Source: an uncultured Veillonella sp.
GTDB lineage: Bacteria > Bacillota > Negativicutes > Veillonellales > Veillonellaceae
NCBI RefSeq assembly: GCF_900538355.1
Contig: NZ_UPXS01000003.1
Length of the DNA: 64,000 nt
Strand: one strand, 5' to 3'
The notes beneath the pieces are model-generated. The model saw nothing but the letters and a program-made list of their open reading frames with translations. It had not been told where the DNA came from and did no database searches. Position numbers and translations under genes: made by a program. Shown piece after piece: positions 5,937 through 52,069 of the stretch. The first letter of the stretch is position 1. The number at the start of each line of letters is the position of its first letter.

Positions 5937-6505
5937 TGACTGATTTAAATCCAATCATTGCAGATCGTTTTACGGAGCATTTGGAAGTCTTTGGAAAGAC
6001 AATGGAGCATATGAATACCATTCAAGAGATTGCATATCGCTGTAAGGCGGCTTTAGAGAATGGCAATAAAATTTTGTTCTGTGGTAATGGCGGTTCTGCT
6101 GCTGATTCTCAACATTTAGCAGCTGAATTGATTTGTCGCTTTAAAAAGGAACGACGCTCTCTTGCAGGTATTGCATTGACTACTGATACATCTGCATTAA
6201 CAGCTATTGCAAATGACTATGATTTTGAATCTGTTTTTGCACGTCAAGTAGAGGGCTTAGGCCGTACAGGTGACGTTCTCATTGGGATTTCTACATCTGG
6301 GAACTCCAAGAACGTTGTAAAAGCTGTAGAAATGGCCCGTTCTATCGGCATGCACACCATAGCTTTCACAGGTGAAGGCGGTGGAAAACTAGCTGAATTA
6401 TGTGATATTACATTAGCTATTCCGAGCAATGTGACAGCTCGTATTCAAGAAATGCACATTCTGGCAGGTCATATAATGTGCGAAATCATTGAAGAAGATT
6501 ATTAA
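5936..6505 (+). CDS. gmhA: D-sedoheptulose-7-phosphate isomerase (SIS domain)
   Basis: 189 aa SIS-domain protein (CGNGGSAADSQHLAAEL). Translationally coupled to the upstream gene and followed by hldE, hldD and gmhB. Confidence 0.85.
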   Translation: MTDLNPIIADRFTEHLEVFGKTMEHMNTIQEIAYRCKAALENGNKILFCGNGGSAADSQHLAAELICRFKKERRSLAGIALTTDTSALTAIANDYDFESVFARQVEGLGRTGDVLIGISTSGNSKNVVKAVEMARSIGMHTIAFTGEGGGKLAELCDITLAIPSNVTARIQEMHILAGHIMCEIIEEDY

Positions 6506-6601
6506 CCGTTACGGTTATATTTATAAATAGATACATGTTTGAAACCCGGTTTTTTAGATAACTCGTTATACATGTATATTGTGGTAAGGAATAGGTGGAT
6601 T

Positions 6602-8080
6602 ATGATAAATGCTACCATTAATCAATTTTTGACAAAACAACTACCCAATCTAAAGATTGCCGTTATAGGTGATGTGATGGTAGATCGTTATGTTTTTGGT
6701 GATGTAAGTCGTATTTCTCCGGAAGCACCGGTTCCTGTAAACCGCGTGGCAAAGATGAAAGAAGTGCTTGGCGGCGCTGGTAATGTTGCGTCAAACTTAT
6801 CAAATTTAGATTGCACAGTATATCTTGGTGCTATTGCCGGTAATGATGACCATGGTCGTTTATTACAACAATTGCTAAAGGCTGATAAGATTGATACAAC
6901 AGGTTTATTAACGAGTGATAATCGTTCTACCATTACTAAAATGCGTATCCTAGGCGATCGCCAACAGATGATGCGCCTTGATTTTGAAACGATTACAGAT
7001 TTAACAAGTGAGGAAGAGAAACGACTGTCTGCTTGGCTAGAAAATCTATGTAAGGCTGGTATCGATGGTATTGTTGTATCTGATTATGGCAAAGGCGTTT
7101 GTACACCAACATTGCTTAAAAAAATCTTTAGTCTAGCTAAGGAGTATGGTGTACAAACCATTGTTGATCCTAAAGGTTCAGACTGGTCTAAATATAATGG
7201 TGCAACTTGCATTACACCGAATGTAAAAGAACTAGGTGAATGTGTAGGTCATAAGTTAGCTAACGATGATGCCACCATCGTAGAGGCAGCTAAGTCAGTA
7301 CTGGCTAATGTTGATTTAGAATATATTGTAGCTACACGGTCAGCAAAAGGGATTACTGTAATTGCAAAGGATGGACGCACATGGCATAATCCGGCTACAC
7401 AACAAGAGGTATTCGATGTAAGTGGTGCAGGCGATACGGTTGTATCTATGATGATGACATGCCTTGCTAGCGGTCTATCTATGCGTTTGGCATTACATAT
7501 CGCAAATGGTGCTGCTGGTATTGTCGTATCTAAGGTGGGCACATATCCAATCCACCGATCTGAACTATTGGATTTATGGCATTCTTATAAGCATAGTGTT
7601 CAATCTAAACCTTTATACACAAAAGAAGAGATGAAGCAGCTTATTGCACAATGGCAAAACAAAGGTGAAACTGTTGTGTTTACTAATGGTTGTTTTGATA
7701 TTCTTCATCGCGGACATATTACGTATTTACAAGAGGCGGCTCAGTTAGGCGACCATTTAATTATTGGATTAAATTCCGATGCTTCGGTTAGACGCCTAAA
7801 AGGGGAAACTCGTCCTATCGTTAGTGAAGAGGATCGAGCTGCTCTATTGAGTGCCTTGCAGTGTATCGATGGGGTTGTATTATTTGAAGAAGATACTCCA
7901 GCTGAGTTATTAGCGTACTTACGTCCTAATACGCTTGTTAAGGGCGGCGATTATAAGATTGAAGATATTATCGGACGGGAGTCCGTTGACAATGTAGAGG
8001 TACTTTCATTTAAAGAAGGTTATTCTACATCTGATATTGTAGGGAAAATAGCCACTATGGCTAAGGAGGGCAAATTATGA
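6602..8080 (+). CDS. hldE: bifunctional D-beta-D-heptose 7-phosphate kinase / heptose 1-phosphate adenylyltransferase
   Basis: N-terminal ribokinase-like PfkB domain (GAGD motif) plus a C-terminal cytidylyltransferase domain (FTNGCFDILHRGH). Start ATG 6602 with GGTGG RBS is chosen over the ORF-track ATG 6539. Confidence 0.88.
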   Translation: MINATINQFLTKQLPNLKIAVIGDVMVDRYVFGDVSRISPEAPVPVNRVAKMKEVLGGAGNVASNLSNLDCTVYLGAIAGNDDHGRLLQQLLKADKIDTTGLLTSDNRSTITKMRILGDRQQMMRLDFETITDLTSEEEKRLSAWLENLCKAGIDGIVVSDYGKGVCTPTLLKKIFSLAKEYGVQTIVDPKGSDWSKYNGATCITPNVKELGECVGHKLANDDATIVEAAKSVLANVDLEYIVATRSAKGITVIAKDGRTWHNPATQQEVFDVSGAGDTVVSMMMTCLASGLSMRLALHIANGAAGIVVSKVGTYPIHRSELLDLWHSYKHSVQSKPLYTKEEMKQLIAQWQNKGETVVFTNGCFDILHRGHITYLQEAAQLGDHLIIGLNSDASVRRLKGETRPIVSEEDRAALLSALQCIDGVVLFEEDTPAELLAYLRPNTLVKGGDYKIEDIIGRESVDNVEVLSFKEGYSTSDIVGKIATMAKEGKL

Positions 8081-9042
8081 TTATCGTAACAGGTGGTGCT
8101 GGTTTTATCGGCAGTAATATTGTGAAAGCACTTAATGACCGCGGTCGTACAGATATTCTCATCGTTGATGATCTTACAGATGGTCGCAAAATTCGCAATA
8201 TTCAAAATCTAGAGTTTTTAGATTACATCGATTGTGATGATTTTGATTGTGCTATCGCTGATGGTACATTCGACGTTGGCCCTATTGAAGTGGTATTCCA
8301 CGAAGGTGCTTGTGCAGACACAATGGAATATAATGGCAAATACATGATGAAGAACAACTATGAAGGTTCTAAAAATCTATTCCATTATTGCCAAGACCGT
8401 CGCATTCCATTTATCTATGCATCCTCTGCATCTACCTATGGTAATGGTACAAATGGTTTCGTAGAAAAACCAGAAGCTGAAGAAGCCCTCAATCCGTATG
8501 CGTATTCTAAATTGTTATTCGACCGTTATGTGCGTAAATATGAAGGTGAATATACAGCTCAAGTAGTAGGCTTACGCTACTTTAACGTATATGGTCCTAA
8601 CGAAGCCCATAAAGATAAAATGGCATCTTTAGTTCGTCAAATGTTCTATAAAAATAAAGAAACTGGTGTTATTAACCTCTTTGAAGGTACAGATGGCTAC
8701 GAAGATGGCGGTCAAACTCGTGACTTTATTTATGTAAAAGACGTAGTTAATGTAAACTTCTACTTCTGGGAGCATCCAGAAATTTCTGGTACTTTTAACT
8801 GTGGTACAGGTAATGCTCATAGCTTTAATCAATTCATGCAAGCTGTTATCGACTATAACGGCCACGGCAAAATTGAATACGTGCCATTCCCAGAGGTATT
8901 AAAAGGCAAATACCAAAGCTTTACAGAGGCTGATACTACTAAATTATTGGCTGCTGGCTATGATAAAGGATTCCACAAAATGGAAGACGCTGTTAAGGAA
9001 TATTGTGAACTACTCGATAATAACGAAGGGTATTTACGTTAA
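8077..9042 (+). CDS. hldD: ADP-L-glycero-D-manno-heptose 6-epimerase
   Basis: NAD-binding Rossmann fold TGGAGFIGSN with YxxxK epimerase signature. 321 aa. Overlaps the hldE stop by 4 nt. Confidence 0.88.
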   Translation: MIIVTGGAGFIGSNIVKALNDRGRTDILIVDDLTDGRKIRNIQNLEFLDYIDCDDFDCAIADGTFDVGPIEVVFHEGACADTMEYNGKYMMKNNYEGSKNLFHYCQDRRIPFIYASSASTYGNGTNGFVEKPEAEEALNPYAYSKLLFDRYVRKYEGEYTAQVVGLRYFNVYGPNEAHKDKMASLVRQMFYKNKETGVINLFEGTDGYEDGGQTRDFIYVKDVVNVNFYFWEHPEISGTFNCGTGNAHSFNQFMQAVIDYNGHGKIEYVPFPEVLKGKYQSFTEADTTKLLAAGYDKGFHKMEDAVKEYCELLDNNEGYLR

Positions 9043-9536
9043 TGCGCAAAGTATTATTTTTAGATCGCGATGGTGTTATTAACAAAGATGTTAGCTATCT
9101 ATATAAAATCAGTGATTTAGAGTGGGTAGACGGTGCAAAAGAGGCCTTAGCTTATGCTTATAGTAAAGGGTATGACCTCATTGTGGTGACTAACCAAAGC
9201 GGTGTAGCTCGTGGCTATTATAAAGAGTCTGATGTAAAGATTCTTCATGACCATATGGCTCATGAACTAGACCGCAGTGGGGCGCCAATTTTACACTTCT
9301 ATTATTGCCCTCACCATAAAGAAGGCTCTGTACCTCTTTATGCTGTCGATTGTGAATGTAGAAAACCTAAGCCTGGCATGATTAAGCAAGCTATTAAGGA
9401 TTATGATGTAGATCCTAAATCTAGTTTTCTTATTGGCGATAGTCAGCGCGATGTTGATGCAGCTGAGGCAGCAGGTGTAAAAGGTTATCTCTTTACAGGT
9501 ACTAACCTATTAGATTTTATTAAAACTATCATTTAA
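9042..9536 (+). CDS. gmhB: D,D-heptose 1,7-bisphosphate phosphatase (HAD)
   Basis: LFLDRDGVIN HAD motif I. 164 aa. Lies in the heptose operon. Confidence 0.8.
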   Translation: MRKVLFLDRDGVINKDVSYLYKISDLEWVDGAKEALAYAYSKGYDLIVVTNQSGVARGYYKESDVKILHDHMAHELDRSGAPILHFYYCPHHKEGSVPLYAVDCECRKPKPGMIKQAIKDYDVDPKSSFLIGDSQRDVDAAEAAGVKGYLFTGTNLLDFIKTII

Positions 9537-9649
9537 TCTAGTATTTAATATACTAATCTACTATTTATATTGTTTTTGCTTAACATATAAGGCTTATTTA
9601 AAGAAAATATAAGGTTGCTTAAGTTGTTGTGTTGTATTTGGGAGGCTAT

Positions 9650-10669
9650 ATGAAAGACTACAAGAATATACTCATCATAAAGATGAGCTCATTAGGCGAT
9701 GTAATTCATGCATTGCCTACCTTGTATGCTGTGCGTAAGAATTGGCCTAATGCGCATATTACCTGGGCCATTCATGAACAATTCGCTAGCCTCTTACCAG
9801 GTACACCTTGGGTTGATGATGTGATTATCATCGACAAGAAACAACTTAAAAAGCCTTATTACTTATATCAATTGCGTAAGGATTTACATAGTCGTCATTT
9901 TGATATGACTTTAGACCTTCAATGTATTGCTAAAAGTGCCATTGTATCATTATTATCTGGTGCGCCTGAAAAATATGGCTACTGGGAACTTCGTGAAGGC
10001 AGTAATTTAGTTAATAAAGCACTTGTTGGTGAACATAAATACGACCATGTCATCGAACGATACCTCGATACCGTACGTGTCCTTGGGGGCGATGTAGAAG
10101 GCGTAGAGTTTCCTATGCCTGCTTATGTGGAGGCGGAGAAGTCCGTTAAGCATAAGTTACAATCTTATGGTGTAGAAGATGAATATGTAGTAGTAGTACC
10201 AGGTGCTCGTTGGATTGTTAAGGAGTGGCCACTTCTTAACTTTGGTGAGCTATGTATCCGCTTATGTGAATCTGGAAAAAAAGTCGTTATTGCTGGTGCC
10301 CCTGATGATGCAGAAAAAGGAGCTTTTATAGAAAACTATGTAAAGCATAAGAATCTCATCAATTTGGTAGGATCTACGTCCATGCCAGAGCTCATTGAGT
10401 TGATTCGACACTGTGAAATTTTCATCAGTGCTGATACGGGTCCTTTGCATATTGCTAATGCTCTGAAGCGGCCTTTGATTGCATTATTTGGAACCACATC
10501 TCCAAAGCGAACTGGTCCATATGGAGGGAGTCATGTACATCTCATTATTTCCCCGACTTCGAAGGCTACACCTGAGCAACCTCTGGTAGATGATCCAGAT
10601 TGTATGGCTCAAATCCCTGTAGATGCAGTATGGTCTGTGTATGAACAAGTACTTGGAAAGGAACTATAA
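9650..10669 (+). CDS. LPS heptosyltransferase (GT9 family, WaaC/WaaF-like)
   Basis: GT9 glycosyltransferase signature (MSSLGDVIHALP N-terminus, C-terminal DTGPLHIA). Start ATG 9650 has GGGAGG 5 nt upstream. Confidence 0.8.
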   Translation: MKDYKNILIIKMSSLGDVIHALPTLYAVRKNWPNAHITWAIHEQFASLLPGTPWVDDVIIIDKKQLKKPYYLYQLRKDLHSRHFDMTLDLQCIAKSAIVSLLSGAPEKYGYWELREGSNLVNKALVGEHKYDHVIERYLDTVRVLGGDVEGVEFPMPAYVEAEKSVKHKLQSYGVEDEYVVVVPGARWIVKEWPLLNFGELCIRLCESGKKVVIAGAPDDAEKGAFIENYVKHKNLINLVGSTSMPELIELIRHCEIFISADTGPLHIANALKRPLIALFGTTSPKRTGPYGGSHVHLIISPTSKATPEQPLVDDPDCMAQIPVDAVWSVYEQVLGKEL

Positions 10670-11709
10670 TGGAACTAGATTATAAGCGCATTGTGGTCAC
10701 CTTTCTCATGCACTTAGGTGATGTTATTTTAACGACTCCATTCCTAGAGGTGCTACGTAAAGCTGCTCCACATAGCCATATTACGTATGTAATAGATGAA
10801 AAACTGCAACAAGTGATGCAATATAATCCAAATATTGATGAACTTATCGTTGTAGATAAAAAAGGGCGTCATAATAGTATTTCTGGGCTCAATGAGGTAG
10901 CTCGTGAGATTAATGCAAAGGGTAAACCTGATATCGTTATCAATTTGCATCCCAATGAACGTACTTCCTATTTAGCCTGGAAGATTCATGCGCCCATTAC
11001 GACTGGTATGAGTCATTTTTTGTTTAGACCGTTTATGACAAAATATACCCGTTTAGACCGTAAAACTCGCCACGCTGCAGATATGTACATCAATGTACTA
11101 GAACAATCAGGTGTAACTGATACTTCTAACTCTGGCTTACACATTGAAACCTGTGAAGCATGGCGCCGTGAGGCTCAAGATTTCTATGCTAGTCATGGAT
11201 TAACCGATAGTGATACGCTCATCGGTTTTAATATTGGTAGTGCTGTTCCTGAGAAGCGCTGGCCTGCTGAACGATTTGCCCATGTAGCTGATTATTTCGG
11301 TCATTTAGGATATAAGACGGTATTCTTTGGCGGCCCTATGGATCTCGAAATGGTGCAACCTGTAGTAGAACAAATGGAAACGAAACCGATTGTGGCTACT
11401 GGAAAATTCCAGTTAGGACCGTTGGCGGCGGCAATGAGCCGCTGTAATCTATTGATTACAAATGACTCTGGTCCTATGCATGTGGCCATCAGTCAACAGG
11501 TGCCAATTGTGGCAATCTATGGGCCATCAAACCCATTCTTTTATGGTCCGTACCAAGCTCATGCTATCGTTCTTGAAACGATGGACTCCTATGAGGTTGG
11601 TAAAAGCATGAAAAAGATTATTAAAGAAGGAAATTACAAAGGGTTATCTGTAATTTCTGAAGAACAGGTTATTAAAGCGGCGGAAACGTTGCTTTCAGAA
11701 TCGAAATAA
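10669..11709 (+). CDS. LPS heptosyltransferase (GT9 family), second paralog
   Basis: GT9 signature (HLGDVILTTP; DSGPMHVA). Translationally coupled to the upstream GT9 gene. Confidence 0.8.
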   Translation: MELDYKRIVVTFLMHLGDVILTTPFLEVLRKAAPHSHITYVIDEKLQQVMQYNPNIDELIVVDKKGRHNSISGLNEVAREINAKGKPDIVINLHPNERTSYLAWKIHAPITTGMSHFLFRPFMTKYTRLDRKTRHAADMYINVLEQSGVTDTSNSGLHIETCEAWRREAQDFYASHGLTDSDTLIGFNIGSAVPEKRWPAERFAHVADYFGHLGYKTVFFGGPMDLEMVQPVVEQMETKPIVATGKFQLGPLAAAMSRCNLLITNDSGPMHVAISQQVPIVAIYGPSNPFFYGPYQAHAIVLETMDSYEVGKSMKKIIKEGNYKGLSVISEEQVIKAAETLLSESK

Positions 11710-39337: not shown

Positions 39338-40102
39338 ATGGATATTAAAGAAGCTCGCAAACAAATAGATAGTATTGACTCCGTACTTGTTACAGAGTTT
39401 GAAAAACGTCTTACATTGATTAAAGAGATTGGTAAATATAAAGATGAACATCATTTGCCACTCATTGATGAAGAACGTGATGAAAGTATTATTGCGTTGC
39501 ATACTGAAAACTGCAAAGATAAAACATTGGCACCTTATATTGAAAATTATATAAAAACTGTTGTGTCTATGAGCAATGAGTTTTTAAAAGAGCATATGCA
39601 TAAGCATATTTTCCTCATTGGCATGCCAGGCGCTGGTAAGACAACAGTTGGCAAAATGCTAGCTAAAGAATTAGGAAGAGATTTTTACGATCTAGATCAA
39701 ACGATTCAAGATAAGGTTGGTAAATCTGTTCAAAAAATCTTTATTTATGATGGTAAAGATGCTTTTAGTGAATATGAATATAATACGATTAAAGAATTAA
39801 TTCATAATAAACCATCTGTTATTGCTACCGGTGGTGGTACTGTTACTTATGATAAAACAGTTAAGCTAATGCGCAATAATGGTCTTGTTGTATTTGTTAA
39901 TCGCGATGTGAATCATATCTTAGATGATTTGGATCTTGAAATTCGTCCACTTGTAAAAGAAAGTATTGAATATATCTTCAATGTATATGAAGAACGATAC
40001 CCTTTATACGAAGAAGTGGCTCATATCAAAATTGGTAATGAAGGTAGCATTACCGATGCGGTACAAGAAATTATTGAAGCTTTGCCTAATACGGAGAAAT
40101 AA
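39338..40102 (+). CDS. chorismate mutase (AroQ) - shikimate kinase fusion protein
   Basis: N-terminal AroQ helix (IKEARKQIDSIDSVLVTEFEKR). C-terminal shikimate kinase P-loop (LIGMPGAGKTTVGK, DLDQ). Confidence 0.7.
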   Translation: MDIKEARKQIDSIDSVLVTEFEKRLTLIKEIGKYKDEHHLPLIDEERDESIIALHTENCKDKTLAPYIENYIKTVVSMSNEFLKEHMHKHIFLIGMPGAGKTTVGKMLAKELGRDFYDLDQTIQDKVGKSVQKIFIYDGKDAFSEYEYNTIKELIHNKPSVIATGGGTVTYDKTVKLMRNNGLVVFVNRDVNHILDDLDLEIRPLVKESIEYIFNVYEERYPLYEEVAHIKIGNEGSITDAVQEIIEALPNTEK

Positions 40103-42255
40103 TGGACGCCATACGAGGATTTGTATACCGAACTATATATGAGAATACACAACGTACGTATTGCGTGTTTGTCCTTAAGGATTATAATGAGGAATACATT
40201 ACTTGTACTGGCAAGTTTGAATCTCCTAAAGAAGGAGAAGATATTGAAGTTCGAGGCCGTTATGTAGAACATGAAAAATATGGTCGTCAATTTGATGCTA
40301 CTAGTGTAGAAAAACTTAAACCTGATAACATGGGTGCTGCTAAGACCTATTTATTGAATTTAGGTATTAAAGGTTTTGGTGAAAAGTCCGTAGAAAAGGT
40401 TCTTGAGTATTTTGGTATCCGTATTTTAGAAGTTTTACGGGAGGAACGTCCCGAAGAAATTAAGGATGTTCCTGGACTTCGTAAAAGTGTTAAGGACGAA
40501 TTATTTAATACCTTACTTGGTGAAGGTATTTTATCCGATTTAAATCACTTTTTTGAAAGCCATCATATTTCTTCTAAATGGAGTCGTACCGTATACACCT
40601 ATTATGGTGTTCAGTCTGTTGCTGTGATAGAGGATAATCCGTATACCTTGTTACGTGTGGCGCCAGATATGCTTTTTGGCACCGCTGATACGCTAGCAGA
40701 ACACTTGGGTATTACAGGTAGTGATACACGCCGTTTAGAAGCGGGATTAGAATGGATTCTACGCAGTTTGGATAATCAAGGGCATACCTGTTTGCCTGTA
40801 GATCAACTTATCGGTCGTTTAGACGATTTATTACAAACTGATGTAGATGATATTGCTAATTTTATTGAAAGTCTCTTGGAGCAAGGTGCTTTATATAGTA
40901 CGTATTATGAAGATATCCTATATATTTACCCTCCAGAAATGTATGTGTCTGAAGTAGAGAGCGTTCATTATACAAAAGATTTCTTATTAGAGGCTGATCC
41001 CATTTCTCTAGATATTCCTAGTTTTATAGAAAAGTTTGAAGCTGATAATCATATTACATTTGGGGATGCTCAAAAAGAGGCTATACAGCTATCCTTCTTT
41101 GAAAAGTTTTCCCTTATAACTGGTGGTCCTGGTACTGGTAAAACGACGATTATTAAGGCTTTAGTAAAAGGCTTCCAACTTGGTGGATTAGGGCGTATTA
41201 TTCTTTGTGCTCCTACGGGACGTGCTGCTAAACGACTTACAGAGGCAACAGAATTTGAGGCTACTACGATTCATAGATTGCTAGTACCTGTTCAAGGCAG
41301 TGACTCTTACGACTTTACTAAGAATGAAGATGATCCATTAGATATAGATGTTATCATCATTGATGAAGCATCAATGCTCAATGTACGGTTATTCTATTCA
41401 TTAATGGCGGCCATTCCAAAGGAAGCCCATGTGATTATCGTTGGTGACGTAGATCAACTACCACCTATTGGAGCAGGTTTTGTATTAAAAGATTTACTCG
41501 ATAGTGATTGTGTTCCTTATACACGACTCAACCAGATTTATCGTCAAAGTTCTGGTAATACTATTGTTGAAAGTGCCTATGCGATTAACCGTGGTGAAAT
41601 GCCAAATTTAGACAGCTTGAGTGAAGAGTTTTCTTTTATTCCTGTTAAGTCTTATGACATGATGATGAAAGCCATCATCGATGTATATAAACGAGAACAA
41701 GAGCATGTAGAGGACGAGCTAGACATTCAAATTATTTCTCCTATGCGCCGTGGTGAAGCCGGTAGTACATTAATTTCTCAATATGTACAACAAGCTGTTA
41801 ATCCACCAGATAGCTTAAAAGGGGAAGCCCGTGTAAATGGTATTACTTACCGCGTTGGCGATAAGGTTATTCAAATTCTCAATGACTATGAGTTAGAGGT
41901 CTTTAATGGTGAAATTGGTGTAATTTACGCCATTACACGAAGCGATATTTGTATCCGATTTATCCATAAAGAGGTTCGTCTACCTATTGATGAAGCTCAT
42001 ATGATTATGACTGCTTATGCTATTACAGTTCATAAGAGCCAAGGTAGCGAGTATGGTGTAGTTATCATTCCATTTGTACCACGCTATGGTGGTATGTTGC
42101 AGCGTAATTTGTTGTATACAGCTGTTACAAGAGCAAAACGGAAGGTTATCATTGTGGGTACTACAAGCGCTATAGAACGTGCTGTACGTACTGTAAATGC
42201 AGATGAACGATATACATTGTTTAAAGAACGACTACAAGGGAGATGTGATTCGTAA
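40102..42255 (+). CDS. recD2: ATP-dependent RecD-like (RecD2) SF1B DNA helicase
   Basis: 717 aa. Walker A GGPGTGKTT, Walker B IIIDEASM, helicase motifs QLPPIGAG and VHKSQGSE. Confidence 0.85.
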   Translation: MDAIRGFVYRTIYENTQRTYCVFVLKDYNEEYITCTGKFESPKEGEDIEVRGRYVEHEKYGRQFDATSVEKLKPDNMGAAKTYLLNLGIKGFGEKSVEKVLEYFGIRILEVLREERPEEIKDVPGLRKSVKDELFNTLLGEGILSDLNHFFESHHISSKWSRTVYTYYGVQSVAVIEDNPYTLLRVAPDMLFGTADTLAEHLGITGSDTRRLEAGLEWILRSLDNQGHTCLPVDQLIGRLDDLLQTDVDDIANFIESLLEQGALYSTYYEDILYIYPPEMYVSEVESVHYTKDFLLEADPISLDIPSFIEKFEADNHITFGDAQKEAIQLSFFEKFSLITGGPGTGKTTIIKALVKGFQLGGLGRIILCAPTGRAAKRLTEATEFEATTIHRLLVPVQGSDSYDFTKNEDDPLDIDVIIIDEASMLNVRLFYSLMAAIPKEAHVIIVGDVDQLPPIGAGFVLKDLLDSDCVPYTRLNQIYRQSSGNTIVESAYAINRGEMPNLDSLSEEFSFIPVKSYDMMMKAIIDVYKREQEHVEDELDIQIISPMRRGEAGSTLISQYVQQAVNPPDSLKGEARVNGITYRVGDKVIQILNDYELEVFNGEIGVIYAITRSDICIRFIHKEVRLPIDEAHMIMTAYAITVHKSQGSEYGVVIIPFVPRYGGMLQRNLLYTAVTRAKRKVIIVGTTSAIERAVRTVNADERYTLFKERLQGRCDS

Positions 42256-42950
42256 TGAGTCTTTGGGATTTCCTATTTCCACCTGTATGTCCTCACTGTG
42301 GTGCCTCTGTTGCAACACAAGGTGATTGGTGTGAAACTTGTTTTAACGATCTATTACATATTCGTCATGTGCCACATAAATTTTTACATTATGTAGATGA
42401 TGTATGTGTGCTAGCAGACTATCGTGGTGGTCTAAAGTCTATGATTTACGATGTAAAATTTAATGAAAAAAAGGAGCAGTCCAAGGGGGCTGCTCCTTTT
42501 TTAGCATCGTACAACTTTTACATGAATTACGATGAACCTAATATTATAAAGGGAAATTGTAAGACTATCTATGATTATATAGTTCCTGTACCGTCTAGTG
42601 AGATGAAGAAGAAAAAAAGGGGGTATAATCAGGTCGATTTATTCTTTAAAAAATGGGCATACTCATTAGAGAAAATAGATAAGCCATATTTTGTATGGTT
42701 AGATTGTATATATAAGTTTGATACCTCTAATGATATGTGGTCCTTAACACATAAAGAACGACATCAAAATATAGAGAATGCTTTTGTGATCAAAGCAGAG
42801 TATAAAGATATTGAATTTTCCACAAAGCGTATTTTAATTGTAGATGATATTTATACTACAGGAGCAACAATCGAAGCTGTAGCCAAGATTCTTAGGTCAT
42901 ATAATCCTAGTAGACTCGATGCTTTAACACTAGCTAGTGGTAGCTTTTAA
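42255..42950 (+). CDS. comFC: ComF-family protein (zinc finger + phosphoribosyltransferase domain)
   Basis: N-terminal CPHCG...C...C zinc ribbon. C-terminal PRTase motif ILIVDDIYTTGATI. Overlaps the recD2 stop. Confidence 0.8.
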   Translation: MSLWDFLFPPVCPHCGASVATQGDWCETCFNDLLHIRHVPHKFLHYVDDVCVLADYRGGLKSMIYDVKFNEKKEQSKGAAPFLASYNFYMNYDEPNIIKGNCKTIYDYIVPVPSSEMKKKKRGYNQVDLFFKKWAYSLEKIDKPYFVWLDCIYKFDTSNDMWSLTHKERHQNIENAFVIKAEYKDIEFSTKRILIVDDIYTTGATIEAVAKILRSYNPSRLDALTLASGSF

Positions 42951-42999: not shown

Positions 43000-43602
43000 T
43001 TAGCCTAGCACATCGATAAATGCTTTTACCACATCTGGATCAAAGAGAGAGCCGGATGCACTAAAGAGTTCTTCTTTAGCTTTAGCTTTTGTTTTTGCCC
43101 AAAATTCTGTAGAAGGATTAACTGTTGTATCATAATAATCTGCAACAGCAATGATTCTAGCTCCTAATGGGATATTAGCACCACGCAAATGTTTAGGGTA
43201 ACCAGAGCCATCCCATTTTTCATGATGGTAACGAATATAAGGCAAGATTTGTTGGCAGCAAGGGTAGTTTTCGATCATATTCGCACCACTTGCAGCATGT
43301 TGCTTATACTTGGACATTTCTTGTTTATTAAGATATGGAGATTTTTGGATTAATGCATTAGGTACCATTAATAGTCCTACGTCATGAAGTAATGCTGCAT
43401 GGCGAATTTGTTCAATTTCATTTAACGGTAAACCCATTTTAGCAGCAATACTAACTGCATAGTTTGAAACTTGGATAGAATGAGTGTACAGATGATAGCT
43501 TTTCATTTGTATCATCTGCAAGAGCTGAGCGCTAATGGCTTCTAAACTGTCCTTCTCCAGTTCGTACAACCCAGATGGTTGCATTAATGATAACATAAAC
43601 AT
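43000..43602 (-). CDS. stand-alone HD-GYP domain phosphohydrolase (putative c-di-GMP phosphodiesterase)
   Basis: HD motif LLHDVGLL. HHEKWDGSGYP carries the GYP signature. 200 aa with no sensor domain. Confidence 0.75.
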   Translation of the reverse strand: MFMLSLMQPSGLYELEKDSLEAISAQLLQMIQMKSYHLYTHSIQVSNYAVSIAAKMGLPLNEIEQIRHAALLHDVGLLMVPNALIQKSPYLNKQEMSKYKQHAASGANMIENYPCCQQILPYIRYHHEKWDGSGYPKHLRGANIPLGARIIAVADYYDTTVNPSTEFWAKTKAKAKEELFSASGSLFDPDVVKAFIDVLG

Positions 43603-44016
43603 AATAAACCCCTTTAACTAACATGTAGAACATATGGTACAACCCCTCGTACTTATGTTCATATCGTACAACTTTAGGCCGTTCTTATTTAATAGTATAC
43701 AAATTATACACCATAAATAATATTTTGTGTATGATACGTATGTTCTATTATACATGTTGTATTCATATTTGGCATACTAAAAATAATTGACATTTTAGGA
43801 ATGTACTAAATATAGTACCTAGAAAAACTAATTTTATAAATATTAAAATAATATGAAGAATATTTTAGGTTTTCTATGACAATTTTCTATACATACCAAA
43901 AAAGGGGTTGCAAAATTTATTCTCATTTCAATGAGAACTGAACGATGCTATGTTCGGAAATATAATTTAATAGGTACGTCTTATTAATTTTAAGAATGTA
44001 TATATAATTATAAATC

Positions 44017-44045
44017 TAGACATGTATACTGTTATTCTTTATAAT
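44017..44045 (+). promoter_or_regulatory. sigma70-type promoter of the structured ncRNA
   Basis: TAGACA -35 (44017-44022), 17-nt spacer, TATAAT -10 (44040-44045). Confidence 0.6.
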
Positions 44046-44051
44046 ACGTCT

Positions 44052-44284
44052 ATACGGGTCTGTGGTTGAAAGTCGATGCCAGTCGCAGGCGAAACGATCC
44101 ACATAAGCAACCCAAGGGGTTGTGAGCATGGTGCGGCTTAGGTGTAAGTCCTGCCGGTAAAACCGAGAGGGGTAGTAGTGGGGAGTCTCGGACTTATGAG
44201 CGAACCCTCCAGCAGGCGAGTGTGGGGGCAAAGACCAGGTCAGCCGTATGCGGGCACATGAGGCTTTTCTCATGTGCTTTTTTC
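44052..44284 (+). ncRNA. stand-alone structured small RNA of about 233 nt, family unassigned (6S/SsrS-like or raiA-motif-like are the candidates)
   Basis: A GC-rich island in AT-rich intergenic DNA. It has its own promoter and an intrinsic terminator (gcacatgag-gcttt-ctcatgtgc + TTTTTT at 44255-44283). The 5' and 3' ends are complementary (AUACGG...CCGUAU, CUG/CAG, UGGU/ACCA). Several internal helices are visible (CAACCC-AAG-GGGUUG; CCGAGA...UCUCGG nested in UAAGU...ACUUA). No ORF is present. Confidence 0.55.
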
Positions 44285-44436
44285 TTTTTATACATCTGTA
44301 TATTTGAAAATGGTGAAAATACCGATTCTTATGGGAAAGTTTTTATACATTATTGTTATAAATATACAATTCGTGTATAAAGATAAAATATAAATATAGT
44401 GATTAATTGATATTTAGGATAATTCTATACAAAATT

Positions 44437-44465
44437 GTTGACATAATTATACTAAGTGGTATACT
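44437..44465 (+). promoter_or_regulatory. promoter of the amino-acid ABC transporter operon
   Basis: TTGACA -35, 16-nt spacer, TATACT -10. Confidence 0.5.
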
Positions 44466-44507
44466 AGTGAAATAAAAATAGTTAGTTTAGTAAATGAGGA
44501 TGATTTG

Positions 44508-45314
44508 ATGTTAAATAGTAAGTTAAAAAAATTAATCATTGGTGGTTGTATGTTGGTAATGGCCGGTACTGTAATTGGCGGTTGTGGATCTTCTACGCAA
44601 ACAACTTCTAATAAACTAATTGTTGGTACTAATGCCACATTTGTACCATTTGAGTTTAAAGATGAAAAAACTCAAGACTACACAGGCTTTGATATTGAAT
44701 TAATTCGTGCCATTGGTAAACGTATCAATAAAGACGTAGAGCTTAAGAATGTTGCTTTTGATGCTTTGATTCCAGCATTAAATACACATGATATTGATGT
44801 AGCTGCATCTGGTATGACGATTACCAAAGCTAGAAGTGAAAAGGTATTATTCTCTTCTCCATATTATGAAAATGCCCTTGCTGTAGTATATAAAGATGGT
44901 GCCAATATCACATCTCTTGATGATCTTAAAGGCAAGAAAATTGCTGCTCAATTAGGTACTACTGGTGCAGATTTAGCACATAAAATCGAAGGAACTACTG
45001 TAAAAGAGTTTGACCATAGTAATGAAGCTTTGTTAGAATTACAAAATGGTGGTGCTGATGCAACTGTTATTGATTTGCCTGTGGCTCAATATTACAGTAC
45101 TAAACATCCAGATCAACATATTAAATTTATGGCATATCCAAATACAAAAGAATATTTGGGCTTAGCAATTAATAAAGATAATAAAGCTTTACAAGAACAA
45201 ATTAATAAAGCAATTGCTGATATGAAGGCTGATGGTGAATTTAATACATTATATAAAAAATGGTTTAATGTAGATGCACCTGCTGATATGCCAGTAGTGG
45301 TAGAATTTAAATAA
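44508..45314 (+). CDS. amino-acid ABC transporter substrate-binding lipoprotein (polar amino acid, family 3)
   Basis: Lipobox IGGC. SBP_bac_3-type sequence. GAGGA RBS 7 nt before ATG 44508. Confidence 0.85.
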   Translation: MLNSKLKKLIIGGCMLVMAGTVIGGCGSSTQTTSNKLIVGTNATFVPFEFKDEKTQDYTGFDIELIRAIGKRINKDVELKNVAFDALIPALNTHDIDVAASGMTITKARSEKVLFSSPYYENALAVVYKDGANITSLDDLKGKKIAAQLGTTGADLAHKIEGTTVKEFDHSNEALLELQNGGADATVIDLPVAQYYSTKHPDQHIKFMAYPNTKEYLGLAINKDNKALQEQINKAIADMKADGEFNTLYKKWFNVDAPADMPVVVEFK

Positions 45315-45325
45315 TAGGAGAAATC

Positions 45326-45982
45326 ATGAGTTTTAATTGGGGGTTAATTGCGGATAATTTACCGCTTTTATTACAAGGTGCACTTGTAACCGTAGAAATT
45401 ACAGCTATGTCTGTTGGCTGTGGTTTCTTTATCGGTTTATTAGTAGCCTTAGCAAATTTATCTAAATTTACTGTAGTTAGATTATTAGCAAAATGTTATG
45501 TAGATATCATTCGTGGTACACCACTATTGGTACAAATCTTCTTGATTTATTTTGCATTGCCAATGATTACAGGACAACGTATTGATCCGTTTATTGCGGC
45601 TGTTACTGCATGTAGTATTAACTCTGGTGCATATGTATCTGAAATCTTCCGTGCTGGTATTCAATCTATCGATAAAGGCCAAATGGAAGCAGGTCGATCT
45701 CTTGGTTTAACTTGGGGTCAAACTATGCGTTATATCATCATGCCTCAAGCTTTCAAAGCAATTATCCCACCATTGGGTAATGAATTTATTGCTATGTTGA
45801 AAGACTCCTCCTTGGTTTCTGTAATTGGTTTCGAAGAATTGACACGTCGTGGTCAATTGATTATTGCTAAAACGTATGCATCCTTTGAAATCTGGGGTAC
45901 AGTTGCTGTTATTTACCTTATTATGACAGTAACAATTTCACAATTGGTTGGTTACCTTGAAAGGAAATATAGCATTAAATGA
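45326..45982 (+). CDS. amino-acid ABC transporter permease (HisM/GlnP-like)
   Basis: 218 aa. EAA-like motif region ([22 protein letters not shown]). Confidence 0.85.
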
Positions 45983-46698
45983 TTAAATTAGAAAATGTAC
46001 ATAAATCCTTTGGTAAAAATGAAGTATTAAAGGGCATTGATTTACATATAGAAAAAGGTCAAGTTGTCGTTATCATCGGTCCATCTGGTTCTGGTAAAAG
46101 TACAGTTTTGCGTACCATGAATTACTTGGAAGAGCCTACATCTGGCAAGGTAATTGTAGATGGTATGGATCTTTCTGATAAGTCTAAACTCAATGAAGTT
46201 CGTGCTGAAGTAGGAATGGTATTCCAAAACTTTAATCTTTTCCCACATATGACAGTAATGGAAAATTTAACGTTAGCTCAAACTAAGGTTCGTAAAACTT
46301 CAAGTGATGAAGCTAAGAAAATCGGACAAGCTTTACTTGATCGCGTTGGGTTAGGCGATAAAGCTAATGCATATCCTGACTCCTTATCTGGTGGTCAAAA
46401 GCAACGTGTTGCCATTGCTCGTGCTCTAGCGATGAAACCAAAAGTTATGCTATTTGATGAACCTACATCTGCACTCGATCCAGAAATGGTTCGTGAGGTT
46501 CTAGATGTAATGAAGTCTCTCGCAGAAGAAGGTATGACAATGGTTATTGTTACTCATGAAATGGGCTTTGCCAAAGAAGTAGCTGACCGTGTATTATTTG
46601 TAGATGGTGGGTTGATTTTGGAAGATGATACTCCTGAAAATGTATTTGATGCTCCAACAAATGAGCGAACAAAATTATTCTTGTCGAAAATTTTATAA
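45979..46698 (+). CDS. amino-acid ABC transporter ATP-binding protein (GlnQ-like)
   Basis: Walker [10 protein letters not shown], signature [15 protein letters not shown], Walker [12 protein letters not shown]. Confidence 0.88.
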
Positions 46699-47221: not shown

Positions 47222-47419
47222 ATGTTAGGTAAAGTAAAATGGTTTAGCGCAGAAAAAGGTTATGGTTTTATTGAACGTGAAGACGGTAGCGATGTATTCG
47301 TACATTACTCTGCGATCCAAGACGAAGGCTTCAAATCTTTGACAGAAGGTCAAAATGTAGAGTTTGATATCGTTGATGGTAACCGTGGCCCTCAAGCTGC
47401 TAACGTTGTAAAAGCGTAA
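47222..47419 (+). CDS. cold-shock protein (CspA family)
   Basis: 65 aa. [12 protein letters not shown] (RNP1) and VFVHYSAI (RNP2). Confidence 0.9.
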
Positions 47420-47660: not shown

Positions 47661-48188
47661 ATGAAAGTAGCAATCAGAGGTAAAAACATTGAAGTGACAG
47701 ATGCTCTAAGAGCATACATCGAAAAAAGATTGAGCAAATTAACTCGTTACTTCGATGATGAGTTAGATGCACAAGCGGTTTTATCCGTTGTTAAAGATAA
47801 ATCTACTGTTGAACTTACATGCTTCGTTGATAAGATCGTTCTTCGCGGTGTAGAAACAAACGATGATATGTATGCAGCTATTGATTTAGTAATAGACAAG
47901 ATCGTACGTCAAATCCATAAACATAAAACTCGTTTAGCAAAACGCTTCAAAAAACAAGAAGCTTTCCATCCTGAAGCTTTAGCAGCTCCTGTAGAAGAGG
48001 AAACTATAGAAGTTGTAAAACGGAAACACTTTGCAGTACGTCCTATGGATGTAGAAGAAGCTATCTTACAAATGAATCTTATTGGCCATGACTTCTTTAT
48101 GTTCTTCAATGCTGAAACAGAAGCAATGAACGTAGTATATCGTAGACATGATGGATTCTATGGTTTGATTGAGCCAGAATTACAATAA
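47661..48188 (+). CDS. hpf: ribosome hibernation promoting factor (long HPF, RaiA family)
   Basis: 175 aa. N-terminal YfiA fold (MKVAIRGKNIEVTDALRAYIEKRL) plus the C-terminal dimerisation domain of long HPF. Confidence 0.9.
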   Translation: MKVAIRGKNIEVTDALRAYIEKRLSKLTRYFDDELDAQAVLSVVKDKSTVELTCFVDKIVLRGVETNDDMYAAIDLVIDKIVRQIHKHKTRLAKRFKKQEAFHPEALAAPVEEETIEVVKRKHFAVRPMDVEEAILQMNLIGHDFFMFFNAETEAMNVVYRRHDGFYGLIEPELQ

Positions 48189-48291: not shown

Positions 48292-48404
48292 TAAAATGCT
48301 ATAAATAATCGTGAAATGCCTTGAATTCTTTGACTATTCAAGGCATTTTCGTTATAATAAATTAGATAAAATAATGTAAGATGTCCTATAGAGGAGTGAT
48401 TTGT

Positions 48405-50840
48405 TTGTTAAGCTTTTTACAAAGGCTATTAGGCAATAATAACGCAAAAGAAATTAAAAAAATGCGTGCTATTGCTGATCATATTAATGAAATTGAACCG
48501 AATTATGTTAAATTAAGTGATGCTAACTTAGTAGCAAAAACCGATGAGTTTAAACGTCGTTTGCAAAAAGGGGAAACGTTAGACGACATTTTGCCAGAAG
48601 CATTTGCTGTAGTTCGCGAAGCATCTAAACGCGTGTTAGGCATGCGTCATTTTGATGTACAGTTGATCGGTGGTATTTGCCTTCATAGAGGTAATATCGC
48701 GGAAATGCGTACTGGTGAAGGTAAAACATTAGTTGCTACATTGCCAGTATATCTAAATGCTTTGACAGGTAATGGTGTACATGTTGTTACAGTAAATGAT
48801 TATTTGGCTACTCGTGATAGTGAACAAATGGGTCGTTTATATAACTTCTTAGGCCTTTCTACAGGTCTTATTGTGGCTAATCTCGATTTTAACCAACGTA
48901 AAGAAGCATATGCATGCGATATTACATATGGTACAAATAATGAGTTTGGTTTTGACTATTTGCGCGATAACATGGTATCCGATGTAGCTCAAATGGTACA
49001 ACGTCCATTGAATTACGCAATTGTCGATGAAGTTGACTCTATTCTTATCGATGAAGCGAGAACTCCATTATTTATTTCTGGTCCTGGTCAACGTTCCACA
49101 GATAATTACTACAAGTTAGCTAAAATTGTTCCTCATCTTGTAAAAGATGAAGATTATACGATTGATGAAAAACAAAAGACTATTGCACCTACTGACTCTG
49201 GTATCGCAAAAGTCGAAAAAATGCTTGGTGTTGAAAACTTGTATGATGCTGAAAACATCGAGTTGAACCATCTACTTGGTGCCTCTCTACGTGCTTATGC
49301 TATGATGCATCGCGATACGGATTACGTAGTTAAAGATGGTGAAGTTGTTATTGTCGATGAATTTACAGGTCGTTTGATGTTTGGTCGTCGTTATTCTGAT
49401 GGCTTACATCAAGCTATCGAAGCTAAAGAAGGATTGAAGGTTGAACGTGAAAGTCAAACATTGGCTTCCATTACATTCCAAAACTATTTCCGTATGTATA
49501 ATAAGCTTGCTGGTATGACTGGTACAGCAAAAACAGAGGAAAAAGAATTCATCGATATTTACGGTTTGGAAGTATTGCCTATTCCTCCAAATAAGCCATT
49601 AGCCCGTGTAGATTTGCCAGATCAAATCTTTAAAACTAAGGCTGCTAAATATCGTGCTGTAGTACGTAATGCTGTAGAACGCCATCAAACTGGTCAACCT
49701 ATCTTGATTGGTACTACATCTATTACACAATCTGAAGAGCTTTCAGATATGTTATTACGTGCAGGCGTACCACATAAAGTATTGAATGCAAAACATCATG
49801 AAAAAGAAGCTGAAATTGTTGCCGATGCTGGTCAAATGGGCATGGTAACAATTGCTACAAACATGGCAGGTCGTGGTACTGATATTACATTAGGGGAAGG
49901 TGTACCTGAATTAGGTGGCTTAGCTATCCTAGGTACTGAACGTCATGAAAGTCGCCGTATCGATAATCAGTTGCGTGGTCGTGCTGGTCGTCAAGGTGAC
50001 CCAGGTTCCTCTCAATTCTTCTTATCCTTAGAAGATGATTTGATGCGTATCTTTGGTGCTGACAATATTACAGGCATCATGGATAAACTTGGCATGGAAG
50101 AGGATGAACCTATTGAGCATTCTTTGATTACTAAATCTATTGAACGTGCTCAAAAGAAAGTAGAGGATCATAACTATAATATTCGTAAATATGTACTCGA
50201 GTATGATGATGTTATGAATCAACAACGTGAAGTATTATACGAACAACGTCGTCGTATTTTACGTAATGAGTCCTTACGTGACACAATCAATGAAATGATT
50301 GATAAACTTGTTACTGAATCTGTAGATGCTTATGCAGATGAAAAATTATATCCAGAAGAATGGGATTACGAAGGTCTCTACAAGCACTTGAGTCAATATT
50401 TCTTAACCGAAGATATTATGACTCCTCAAGATATGGAAGAATATAGTCGTCAAGAATTATTAGAACGCTTGCTTGAAATTGCTCATGCTGAGTACCAAGA
50501 TCGCGTTGATATGCTTGGTGATGCTATGTTTGGCCAACTTGAAAAGGCTATTATGTTGCGCGTTGTTGATAACAAATGGATGGAACATTTGGATAATATG
50601 GATATGTTGCGTGAAGGTATCGGCCTTCGTGCATATGGCCAAAAAAATCCATTGGTGGAATATAAATTTGAAGCCTTTGATATGTTCCAAAACATGATTG
50701 CTGCTATCCAAGATGAAACAATCATGGCGTTGTACAAAATTCGTGCACAATTGATTCAAGAAATTGAAGAACCAGTTGACCACTTAGAAGGTGCACAACC
50801 CCATCATGAAGATGTGTTGGAGCCACAAAACATAGATTAA
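48405..50840 (+). CDS. secA: preprotein translocase ATPase SecA
   Basis: DEAD-like motor with Walker A MRTGEGKT, followed by the preprotein cross-linking domain. Start TTG 48405 gives [10 protein letters not shown], matching the conserved SecA N-terminus, with AGAGGAG 8 nt upstream. The ORF-track ATG 48381 has no RBS. Confidence 0.92.
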
Positions 50841-50961: not shown

Positions 50962-52069
50962 TTGTTAGAAGATTTAAAACCTATTATTTCTAATCTAGAA
51001 GAACGTATTTATGGAATGAGGGATTCACTTTAACATCGCTCAGAAAGAAGATCGAATCTTTACACTTGATGTGCAAATGAGCGACCCTACATTTTGGGAT
51101 GACCCAGACAAGGCTCGTGAGATTTCTCAAGAAGCCACACAATTGAAAAATGCTGTAGAAAGCTATAAACAACTTGTTAGTGATATTGAAGATGCTAATG
51201 TAATGCTTGAGATGGCAATAGAGGAAGATGATCGTTCTCTAGAAGGTGAAATCAAGGATTATGTTCAACAAATAGAAGAAACGGTAGAAAAACAAGAAGT
51301 TCTTTTATTGCTTAGTGGTGAATATGATGCTAATAATGCGATTTTAACATTCCATGCTGGTGCAGGTGGCACAGAGGCACAAGATTGGTGTTCCATGCTG
51401 ATTCGCATGTACTTGCGTTGGGCTGAAAAAGCAGGATTCTCTATTGAATTGATGGATGAACAACCAGGTGATGAGGCGGGCACAAAATCTGCTACATTTT
51501 TAATTAAAGGTGAAAATGCCTTTGGTTATTTGAAATCTGAAAAAGGTGTACATCGTCTAGTACGTATTTCACCATTTGATGCTGCTGCACGTCGTCATAC
51601 ATCCTTTGCTGCTGTTGATGTAATGCCGGAAATTGATGATACAGTAGAAATTAATATTGATATGAAAGATGTACAAGTAGATACATATAGAGCTAGCGGT
51701 GCTGGTGGTCAGCATATTAATAAAACAGATTCTGCTGTACGTATGACGCATAGACCAACAGGTATCGTAGTACAGTGTCAAACTCAACGTTCTCAAATGC
51801 AAAATAGGGAACAAGCATTACGTTTATTGCGTGCTAAATTATTTGAATTAGAATTAGAAAAACAAGCAGAACTTAAAGAGCAAATTGGTGGTACCTATCA
51901 AGCGATTGAATGGGGTAGTCAAATTCGGTCGTATGTATTCCACCCATATAATCTCGTTAAGGATCATCGCACAGGGGTTGAAACAGGGAATGTACAATCC
52001 GTTATGGATGGTAATTTAGATCAATTTATGGAAGGTTTCTTGAAAAAAGAAGCGAATTTAACAATTTAG
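50962..52069 (+). CDS. prfB: peptide chain release factor 2, requiring a programmed +1 ribosomal frameshift
   Basis: ORF1 (TTG 50962, GGTGGTG RBS) encodes LLEDLKPIISNLEERIYGMRDSL and stops at TAA 51031-33. The +1 frame continues N-IAQKEDRIFTLDVQMSDPTFWDD... through the GGQ motif (SGAGGQHINKTDSAVR) to 52069. The shift site is CTT TAA C, preceded by the SD-like GAGGGA. Confidence 0.85.
51019..51034 (+). promoter_or_regulatory. prfB +1 frameshift cassette (internal SD-like GAGGGA + CUU UAA C)
   Basis: aGGGAttcaCTTTAAC. The stop at the shift site is UAA rather than the canonical UGA. Confidence 0.7.

Follow-up and report, generated by a model that had tools for sequence, protein, structure and literature searches.

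A raiA-motif (ModT) RNA gene of Veillonella with a predicted promoter and terminator of its own

What is encoded by a compact GC-rich block that stands in otherwise very AT-rich intergenic DNA of a Veillonella? The window analysed here is a stretch of 64 kb (64,000 nucleotides), and its G+C content is 0.53-0.60 over 44050-44250 compared with 0.16-0.28 in the flanks, which bears out the GC-rich island that an earlier note had picked out from the letters alone. That note took the island for an independent, highly structured noncoding RNA gene, called its family unclear, named 6S RNA and the raiA-motif RNA as candidates and dismissed SRP RNA. The first of these judgments is backed by the match to an Rfam family, by covariation and by the conservation of promoter and terminator, all dealt with below, whereas the family, far from being unclear, is settled by one Rfam search.

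When the whole window was scanned against Rfam 15 at gathering thresholds, the only match was to RF03072 (raiA RNA), in one copy. It is full length (model positions 1-209 of 209) and extends over 44049-44252 on the plus strand, with 196.8 bits as against a gathering score of 101.3, and E 1.6e-50. In a permissive scan of 43900-44400 (E<=10, permissive filters) raiA is the sole match with an E value below 0.4, the other four being noise well under their thresholds. The Veillonella RNA is identical to the RF03072 consensus at 84 of the 85 strongly conserved (upper-case) positions, and the family trait of at least about 50 nearly invariant nucleotides is therewith present. The search that the earlier note had proposed, with 6S, raiA and SRP models, thus returns a full-length raiA match and nothing for the other two, so that the raiA motif, one of the two candidates it had named, turns out to be right. 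Judged by this match, the island reads as a textbook raiA-motif RNA (called ModT in C. difficile). With little room for doubt, 44049-44252 can be taken as a Veillonella raiA-motif RNA gene, present once in the window and with its own predicted promoter and terminator; by homology the RNA would act in trans.

The alternative of a 6S RNA, an open-promoter mimic that would sequester RNA polymerase, draws on the size and the long terminal helix of the island and on nothing else. Even at E<=10 with permissive filters, 6S models gave zero matches in 43900-44400, and the fold is a multi-junction with two pseudoknots and not a rod with a central bubble, so that the likelihood of this identity is virtually nil. 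SRP RNA is excluded, as had been supposed, its models also having zero matches in the permissive scan of 43900-44400 at E<=10. Both 6S and SRP RNA are like the Veillonella raiA RNA in size class, in forming a GC-rich island, in having their own promoter and terminator and in the high abundance to be expected, but sequence and structure are unmatched and the fold is another one.

The raiA motif was first described in 2017 and was catalogued in 2024 in more than 2,700 species, Negativicutes included (PMC10861870); the family has since been studied genetically (PMC11706538) and structurally (PMC12968392). Among large bacterial RNAs whose biochemical function has yet to be found, it is one of the most widespread. 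The copy in the window is of an already known kind, a standard member that a default Rfam search recovers, and the main yield is an annotation gap mended: the intergenic island is to be labelled raiA-motif/ModT RNA.

For the architecture, helices were placed with the published consensus (PMC10861870) and the cryo-EM descriptions (PMC12968392) as guides, 44049 being counted as position 1 (Table 1). The Veillonella sequence accommodates all the published helices and both pseudoknots, P2 being absent. The three-segment P1 with its GU (5′) and GGU (3′) bulges, a trait of the family, is present and is formed by the two ends whose complementarity had been noticed from the letters; the bent P3a/P3b with an A-rich loop, together with P4, a core trait of the family, is present as well. 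The junction residues, GAAA and a single A at 44231 (A183), are there at the level of sequence; in the solved structures the GAA(A) turn is completed by a bulged A, the equivalent of 44231, that comes from the PK2 region (PMC12968392). G20, A22 and A23 of the junction are conserved, and position 21 varies between A, U and C.

Table 1. Coordinates in the window of the raiA-motif RNA gene, its parts and its neighbours
Feature	Coordinates	Strand	RNA numbering	Remarks
RecD2/YrrC helicase	40102-42255			
ComFC-like gene	42255-42950	+		gene position -2; Pfam DZR_2 and Pribosyltran; NCBIfam comF below cutoff
HD-GYP phosphodiesterase gene	43000-43602	-		stand-alone, 200 aa, divergent from the RNA gene; Pfam HD_5
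-35 hexamer TAGACA	44017-44022	+		sigma-70/SigA-type promoter of the RNA (predicted); conserved in Veillonella
-10 hexamer TATAAT	44040-44045	+		predicted start ~44052 (A), from spacing
raiA-motif (ModT) RNA core	44049-44252	+		204 nt; subtype without P2 and with P8; RF03072 match
P1, 5′ strand	44051-44067	+	P1a 3-9; bulge G10 U11; P1b 12-14; P1c 15-19	P1a 44051-44057; GU bulge 44058-44059; P1b 44060-44062; P1c 44063-44067
P1, 3′ strand	44233-44250	+	P1c 185-189; bulge G190 G191 U192; P1b 193-195; P1a 196-202	P1c 44233-44237; GGU bulge 44238-44240; P1b 44241-44243; P1a 44244-44250
GAAA junction	44068-44071	+	G20 A21 A22 A23	GAA(A) tetraloop-like turn
P3a and P3b	44072-44098	+	P3a 24-27/47-50; P3b 30-32/40-42	P3a 44072-44075/44095-44098; P3b 44078-44080/44088-44090; A-rich asymmetric internal loop, AU 44076-44077 opposite GAAA 44091-44094; P3b apical loop forms PK1
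PK1	44082-44087/44132-44137	+	34-39/84-89	GUCGCA with UGCGGC, 6 bp; P3b loop with post-P5 linker
P4	44099-44103/44221-44225	+	51-55/173-177	
P5 hairpin	44107-44123	+	59-65/69-75	
PK2	44129-44130/44229-44230	+	81-82/181-182	UG with CA; U44129-A44230, G44130-C44229
Linker UUAGGUGUAA	44138-44147	+	90-99	single-stranded, PK1 to P6; proposed KhpA-KhpB binding site
P6	44150-44154/44212-44216	+	102-106/164-168	encloses P7 and P8 (44150-44216)
P7	44155-44165	+	107-109/115-117	short hairpin
P8	44169-44209	+	121-161	E-loop UAGUA/GAA
Intrinsic terminator	44252-44289	+		stem GCACAUGAG(G)/(U)CUCAUGUGC, 10-12 bp, 44252/44254-44279; loop CUUU; U-tract, UUUUUUCUUUUU up to 44289
Antisense ORF	44016-44273	-		85 aa; mechanical ORF list; no Pfam match
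Sense ORF	44222-44380	+		52 aa; mechanical ORF list; no Pfam match
Polar amino-acid ABC transporter operon	44438-46698	+		promoter 44438-44465; genes 44505-46698: binding protein (+1), permease, ATPase
Cold-shock protein gene	47222-47419			
hpf/raiA, ribosome hibernation factor, long form	47661-48188	+		position +5; Pfam Ribosomal_S30AE and C-terminal domain; NCBIfam yfiA
secA	48381-50840			
prfB (release factor 2)	50963-52069	+		after secA

The single-stranded linker has 8 of 10 bases in common with the family consensus UUAGA(C/A)GUAA, within which the site for KhpA-KhpB has been proposed (PMC12968392); two central positions also vary in other members, and the A-to-G change at the fifth base (44142) is the sole mismatch to the strongly conserved consensus positions. 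GAGGGG and CCCUC, put forward in the earlier note as pseudoknot partners, are rejected as such: they make up the nested basal helix of P8, the true pseudoknots being PK1 and PK2. When 44052-44290 is folded as a single sequence to minimum free energy, the terminator hairpin comes out but the true fold does not, and the z of -1.6 compared with shuffles is not significant; the RNA being pseudoknotted, such a fold is uninformative. The structural evidence is comparative, not thermodynamic.

That comparative evidence begins with the genus. The RNA is at the same place in V. infantium, V. parvula, V. atypica, V. tobetsuensis, a Veillonella MAG and Veillonella sp. VA142 (187-198 bits with the Rfam model), and is also present in Phascolarctobacterium/Acidaminococcaceae and in one Bacillota MAG (194-199 bits). 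The comparison loci, seven from six other Veillonella species and four from other Negativicutes/Bacillota, all have the RNA at the same place, with 187-199 bits when taken together. In an alignment of 11 sequences, 98.2% of the cells are paired, compared with 33-41% when the 3′ partners are slid by 1-3 columns, and both-sided changes are found at 18 pairs, with pairs of PK1 and PK2 among them. Scanning of metagenome contigs with a conserved 3′ pattern yielded 120 further raiA loci. With 88 diverse sequences aligned, 97.8% of the cells are paired (29-47% when slid) and both sides change at 26 of 44 pairs, though in that set positions 168-196 are fixed by the search pattern, with the result that P4, P1b and P1c are uninformative there.

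Among the individual elements, PK1 and P3a are each 100% paired in the 88 sequences, with double changes at all of their pairs (6/6 and 4/4, respectively), and the U-A pair of PK2 is replaced by C-G in 3 of the 11 and 11 of the 88. P1a covaries strongly; P1b and P1c are invariant. P5 shows compensatory change within Veillonella, GCAACCC/GGGUUGU in some and GCAGUCC/GGGCUGU in others, and broadly in the 88-sequence set too. The alignment for covariation that had been suggested as a check therefore comes out in favour of the RNA, pseudoknots included, and the fold, comprising P1, P3a/P3b, P4, two pseudoknots and the arms P5, P6-P7 and P8, is supported at the level of sequence and covariation. In the Veillonellaceae relatives Colibacter, Megasphaera and Dialister, nhmmer and Rfam searches of the 6 kb that precede hpf gave no raiA RNA. 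Dialister keeps the permease-ATPase-csp-hpf-secA block, with the RNA undetected there. The RNA may be elsewhere in the genomes of these three genera, or may have been lost.

The same comparisons have a bearing on the host. The hpf product is 98% identical to that of V. infantium and 96% to that of V. parvula, which, along with the HD-GYP protein described below, places the window in a Veillonella of that group; ComFC is ~81-82% identical to its counterpart in both and 53% identical to that of V. atypica. Because ComFC is only ~81-82% identical to both V. infantium and V. parvula, the host is probably another species than these two, or a divergent strain.

Could the island code for a small protein? 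Two overlapping ORFs, one antisense of 85 aa (44016-44273) and one sense of 52 aa (44222-44380), do appear in the mechanical list, and to that extent the earlier statement that the island encodes no ORF is literally incorrect. In substance it holds, since the frames are not conserved across species and a Pfam search of the two ORFs gave no matches. The longest open frame shifts in length and frame from species to species: it has 91 aa in the window and 67 in V. parvula, and in V. atypica the same frame is open for 43. The substitutions are compensatory ones in helices and not changes at third codon positions. GC-rich DNA inside an AT-rich genome lacks stop codons from composition alone. A coding role for the island is extremely improbable, and the overlapping ORFs are by-products of this base composition.

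How the raiA RNA would be transcribed can be predicted from its borders. The promoter, TAGACA-17-TATAAT, which had been described as near-consensus, matches the consensus at 11 of 12 positions. Promoter-like matches are common in the surrounding AT-rich kilobase (15 observed, where shuffles lead one to expect 6.5), so it is mainly by its conservation that the promoter is called: the -35, the -10 and the distance to P1 are kept in five other Veillonella (V. infantium, V. parvula, V. atypica, V. tobetsuensis and a Veillonella MAG), with a spacer of 17 or 18, while the surrounding DNA diverges. Between the -10 hexamer and the CGGG of P1 there are 9 nt in all the Veillonella species. At the other end, the strong intrinsic terminator that had been recognized is the only terminator-like site in the kilobase, with 0.3 expected, and five other Veillonella species have the identical hairpin. 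In Veillonella sp. VA142 the promoter region is another one, and so is the terminator hairpin at the same place.

Transcription would start at about 44052 from this housekeeping-type promoter and stop at the terminator, giving a predicted primary transcript of ~235-240 nt that would consist of the 204-nt conserved core and a 3′ hairpin, as in the long ModT isoform. P1a has 7 bp in the DNA and 6-7 bp when counted from the predicted start, compared with 9 bp in the Rfam model; by a crude measure, the number of contiguous P1a pairs ranges from 1 to 24 across 88 loci, a spread too broad to mark the Veillonella P1a as unusually short. In a crude scan, a terminator is found within 80 nt of P1 in 24 of 87 raiA loci. 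A third near-consensus promoter, TTGACA-18-TATAGT (11/12), is at 43787-43816 (+), ~260 nt upstream and pointing at the RNA gene; no obvious ORF is behind it, and other Veillonella species have kept its TTGACA. The RNA could have a further start there, or the promoter could serve an unrelated small transcript.

The wider gene context is that of the family. hpf/raiA is the gene that named the RNA and comFC is the typical upstream neighbour of raiA RNAs (PMC10861870). In the window comFC is upstream, hpf is downstream, where it had been reckoned to lie 3.4 kb away, and a binding-protein gene adjoins. A block of RNA, binding protein(s), permease, ATPase, (csp), hpf and secA is common to Veillonella, Acidaminococcaceae and a Bacillota MAG, the order being the RNA first and then the transporter binding protein(s), and a Pelosinus locus, with a partial nhmmer match at its edge, agrees with that gene order. 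Published raiA associations comprise comFC, raiA/hpf, binding-protein genes, ABC transporters, secA, prfB and cyclic-dinucleotide signalling genes (PMC10861870; Weinberg et al.).

Two observations from farther away in the window may be set down here. The prfB gene has CUU UAA C at 51028-51034, where the in-frame stop is UAA and a programmed +1 frameshift is needed. Programmed +1 frameshifting is usual for prfB, the classical in-frame stop being UGA. At 5936-11709 (+) there is an ADP-heptose cluster with genes for SIS/GmhA, an HldE-like kinase-adenylyltransferase, an epimerase, a GmhB-like phosphatase and two heptosyltransferases; these are ordinary genes for the LPS core and in keeping with a diderm Negativicutes host.

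The constancy with which the RNA precedes a transporter operon raises the matter of whether it acts in cis. As a riboswitch-like leader it would govern the downstream ABC operon by conditional read-through of the terminator at 44252-44289. In Rfam the family bears the type label 'Cis-reg; riboswitch', a link with periplasmic binding proteins was pointed out by Weinberg et al., and in all Negativicutes loci examined the RNA, 1-3 binding-protein genes, and the permease and ATPase genes follow one another on the same strand, all of which makes this the only rival with any support. However, a strong terminator comes 2-3 nt after P1, and the ABC operon has a promoter of its own, TTGACA-16-TATACT, ~150 nt beyond that terminator and conserved in Veillonella, as the earlier note had said in setting the operon apart. 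By eye, no conserved antiterminator pairing was found: the partial complementarity of 44127-44134 to the 5′ arm of the terminator is lost in Veillonella sp. VA142. Elsewhere in the family, deletions were complemented in trans in two species (PMC10861870; PMC11706538), and orientation to neighbouring genes varies (PMC10861870). A leader function is on balance quite improbable, and the earlier view that the RNA is not a cis-leader most likely stands; its conserved promoter and terminator define the raiA RNA as a predicted separate transcription unit.

The interval between the RNA terminator and the ABC promoter has a peculiarity of another kind. Its sites at 44289-44302 and 44363-44379 are the only TATACA-N(2-5)-TGTATA palindromes in the 64 kb, where 0.26 are expected, and they are kept in 5 of 6 other Veillonella species, Veillonella sp. 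VA142 being the one that lacks them. Of the window's 69 TATACA hexamers, 12 fall in 43696-44431. The palindromes are candidate operator sites for some regulator.

On its other side the RNA gene shares a 450-nt divergent promoter region with a gene for a stand-alone HD-GYP phosphodiesterase, and does so in all Veillonella and many Acidaminococcaceae loci. The protein has the motifs LLHDVG and HHEKWDGSGYP, is homologous to HD-GYP phosphodiesterases of solved structure (5z7c, 4mcw, 4r8z) and is identical to one in V. parvula DSM 2008 (CP001820.1) and other assemblies. In conservation it surpasses all other proteins of the region, those of hpf and secA and the cold-shock protein included. With 0 non-synonymous and 57 synonymous codon differences from V. 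parvula, and 6 and 82, respectively, from V. atypica, its gene is under extreme purifying selection. In its 5′ UTR, at 43628-43660 (-), there is a hairpin ~25 nt upstream of the ribosome-binding site. The stem sequences differ between the V. parvula and V. atypica groups, the loop GGGGUUG is constant, and the ribosome-binding site, GGGGUU, reads like that loop; the hairpin may be a regulatory element.

That cyclic-dinucleotide genes are near raiA RNAs has already been remarked on (PMC10861870). In the metagenomic set, an HD-GYP gene lies no more than 5 kb away in 17 of the 120 raiA loci, 14 of them in the same divergent arrangement and all 14 with the Negativicutes-type operon, and three with the gene downstream of hpf. 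Outside Negativicutes the adjacency is weak (3 of the 120 metagenomic loci, in the other arrangement), and hpf loci without a detected raiA RNA gave one HD-GYP match, a weak one. The linkage of HD-GYP gene and raiA RNA is thus real but mostly a matter of one lineage. The further step, that in Negativicutes the raiA/ModT RNA and the HD-GYP phosphodiesterase are a functional pair, is a long shot; as variants of it, the RNA might bind the enzyme, regulate it or be acted on by it, or might sense its substrate or product. If true, such a pair would account for the c-di-GMP phenotype seen in ModT mutants and provide a biochemical handle on this class of RNA. The HD-GYP gene, tightly linked and unusually constrained, is a concrete candidate partner and the sole lead worth following.

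Veillonella is a non-sporulating diderm, and clostridial sporulation and toxin phenotypes do not exist there, so the physiological role in Veillonella is extrapolated from homologues. No study of raiA RNA in Veillonella turned up in the literature, and the literature on Veillonella expression held nothing relevant to that RNA. In C. acetobutylicum and C. difficile the raiA RNA is very abundant and very stable, and its deletion is complemented in trans (PMC10861870; PMC11706538). Strains that have lost it are impaired in sporulating and aggregating and are late in entering stationary phase (PMC10861870; PMC11706538), and in C. difficile the sporulation defect on loss of ModT comes about via c-di-GMP raised through dccA (PMC11706538). 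KhpA-KhpB binds several raiA RNAs in vitro with a Kd of ~2 uM, possibly at the exposed linker (PMC12968392), though on KhpB and ModT in C. difficile the papers disagree, with RIP-seq not detecting the interaction (PMC11706538) and pull-down showing enrichment (PMC12968392).

By analogy, it is highly likely that the Veillonella raiA RNA acts in trans. It would do so as an abundant, stable RNA, probably within a ribonucleoprotein, and would tune the switch from growth to stationary phase; since the genus forms no spores, growth arrest, aggregation or biofilm are the likely outputs. Any specific biochemical mechanism is much less certain than action in trans, the candidates for the family being a ligand receptor, a ribozyme and a protein scaffold. 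The lack of sporulation together with the linked HD-GYP gene makes Veillonella a reasonable experimental system. As a suggestion, and not a discovery, a knockout in this genetically tractable genus could part the core function of the RNA from its clostridial developmental outputs.

Of the known members, Ca-raiA of C. acetobutylicum, solved by cryo-EM (PMC12968392), is like the Veillonella RNA in its 204 nt, in having no P2, a short P7 and a P8 with E-loop, in PK1 and PK2 and even in the numbering of landmarks (G10 U11, G20 A21 A22 A23 and A183), and it too has comFC upstream and hpf downstream. Differences are that Veillonella has a conserved terminator right after P1, whereas for C. acetobutylicum a terminator or long isoform is unreported (PMC11706538), that an HD-GYP gene and an ABC operon are inserted in Veillonella among comFC, the RNA and hpf, and that the linker reads UUAGGUGUAA in a host that is a non-sporulating diderm. 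ModT of C. difficile (PMC11706538) differs in having two measured 3′ ends (~215 and ~260 nt), as opposed to one predicted terminator in Veillonella, and in a link to c-di-GMP via dccA expression, for which the neighbouring HD-GYP gene is the only Veillonella hint. It resembles the Veillonella RNA in being far GC-richer than its genome, in being an independent gene that acts in trans (in Veillonella, predicted to do so), in its one SigA-type promoter and in the terminator hairpin appended to P1 in its long isoform, the more stable one (PMC11706538). It is this long isoform that the predicted Veillonella transcript resembles, because its terminator hairpin comes directly after P1.
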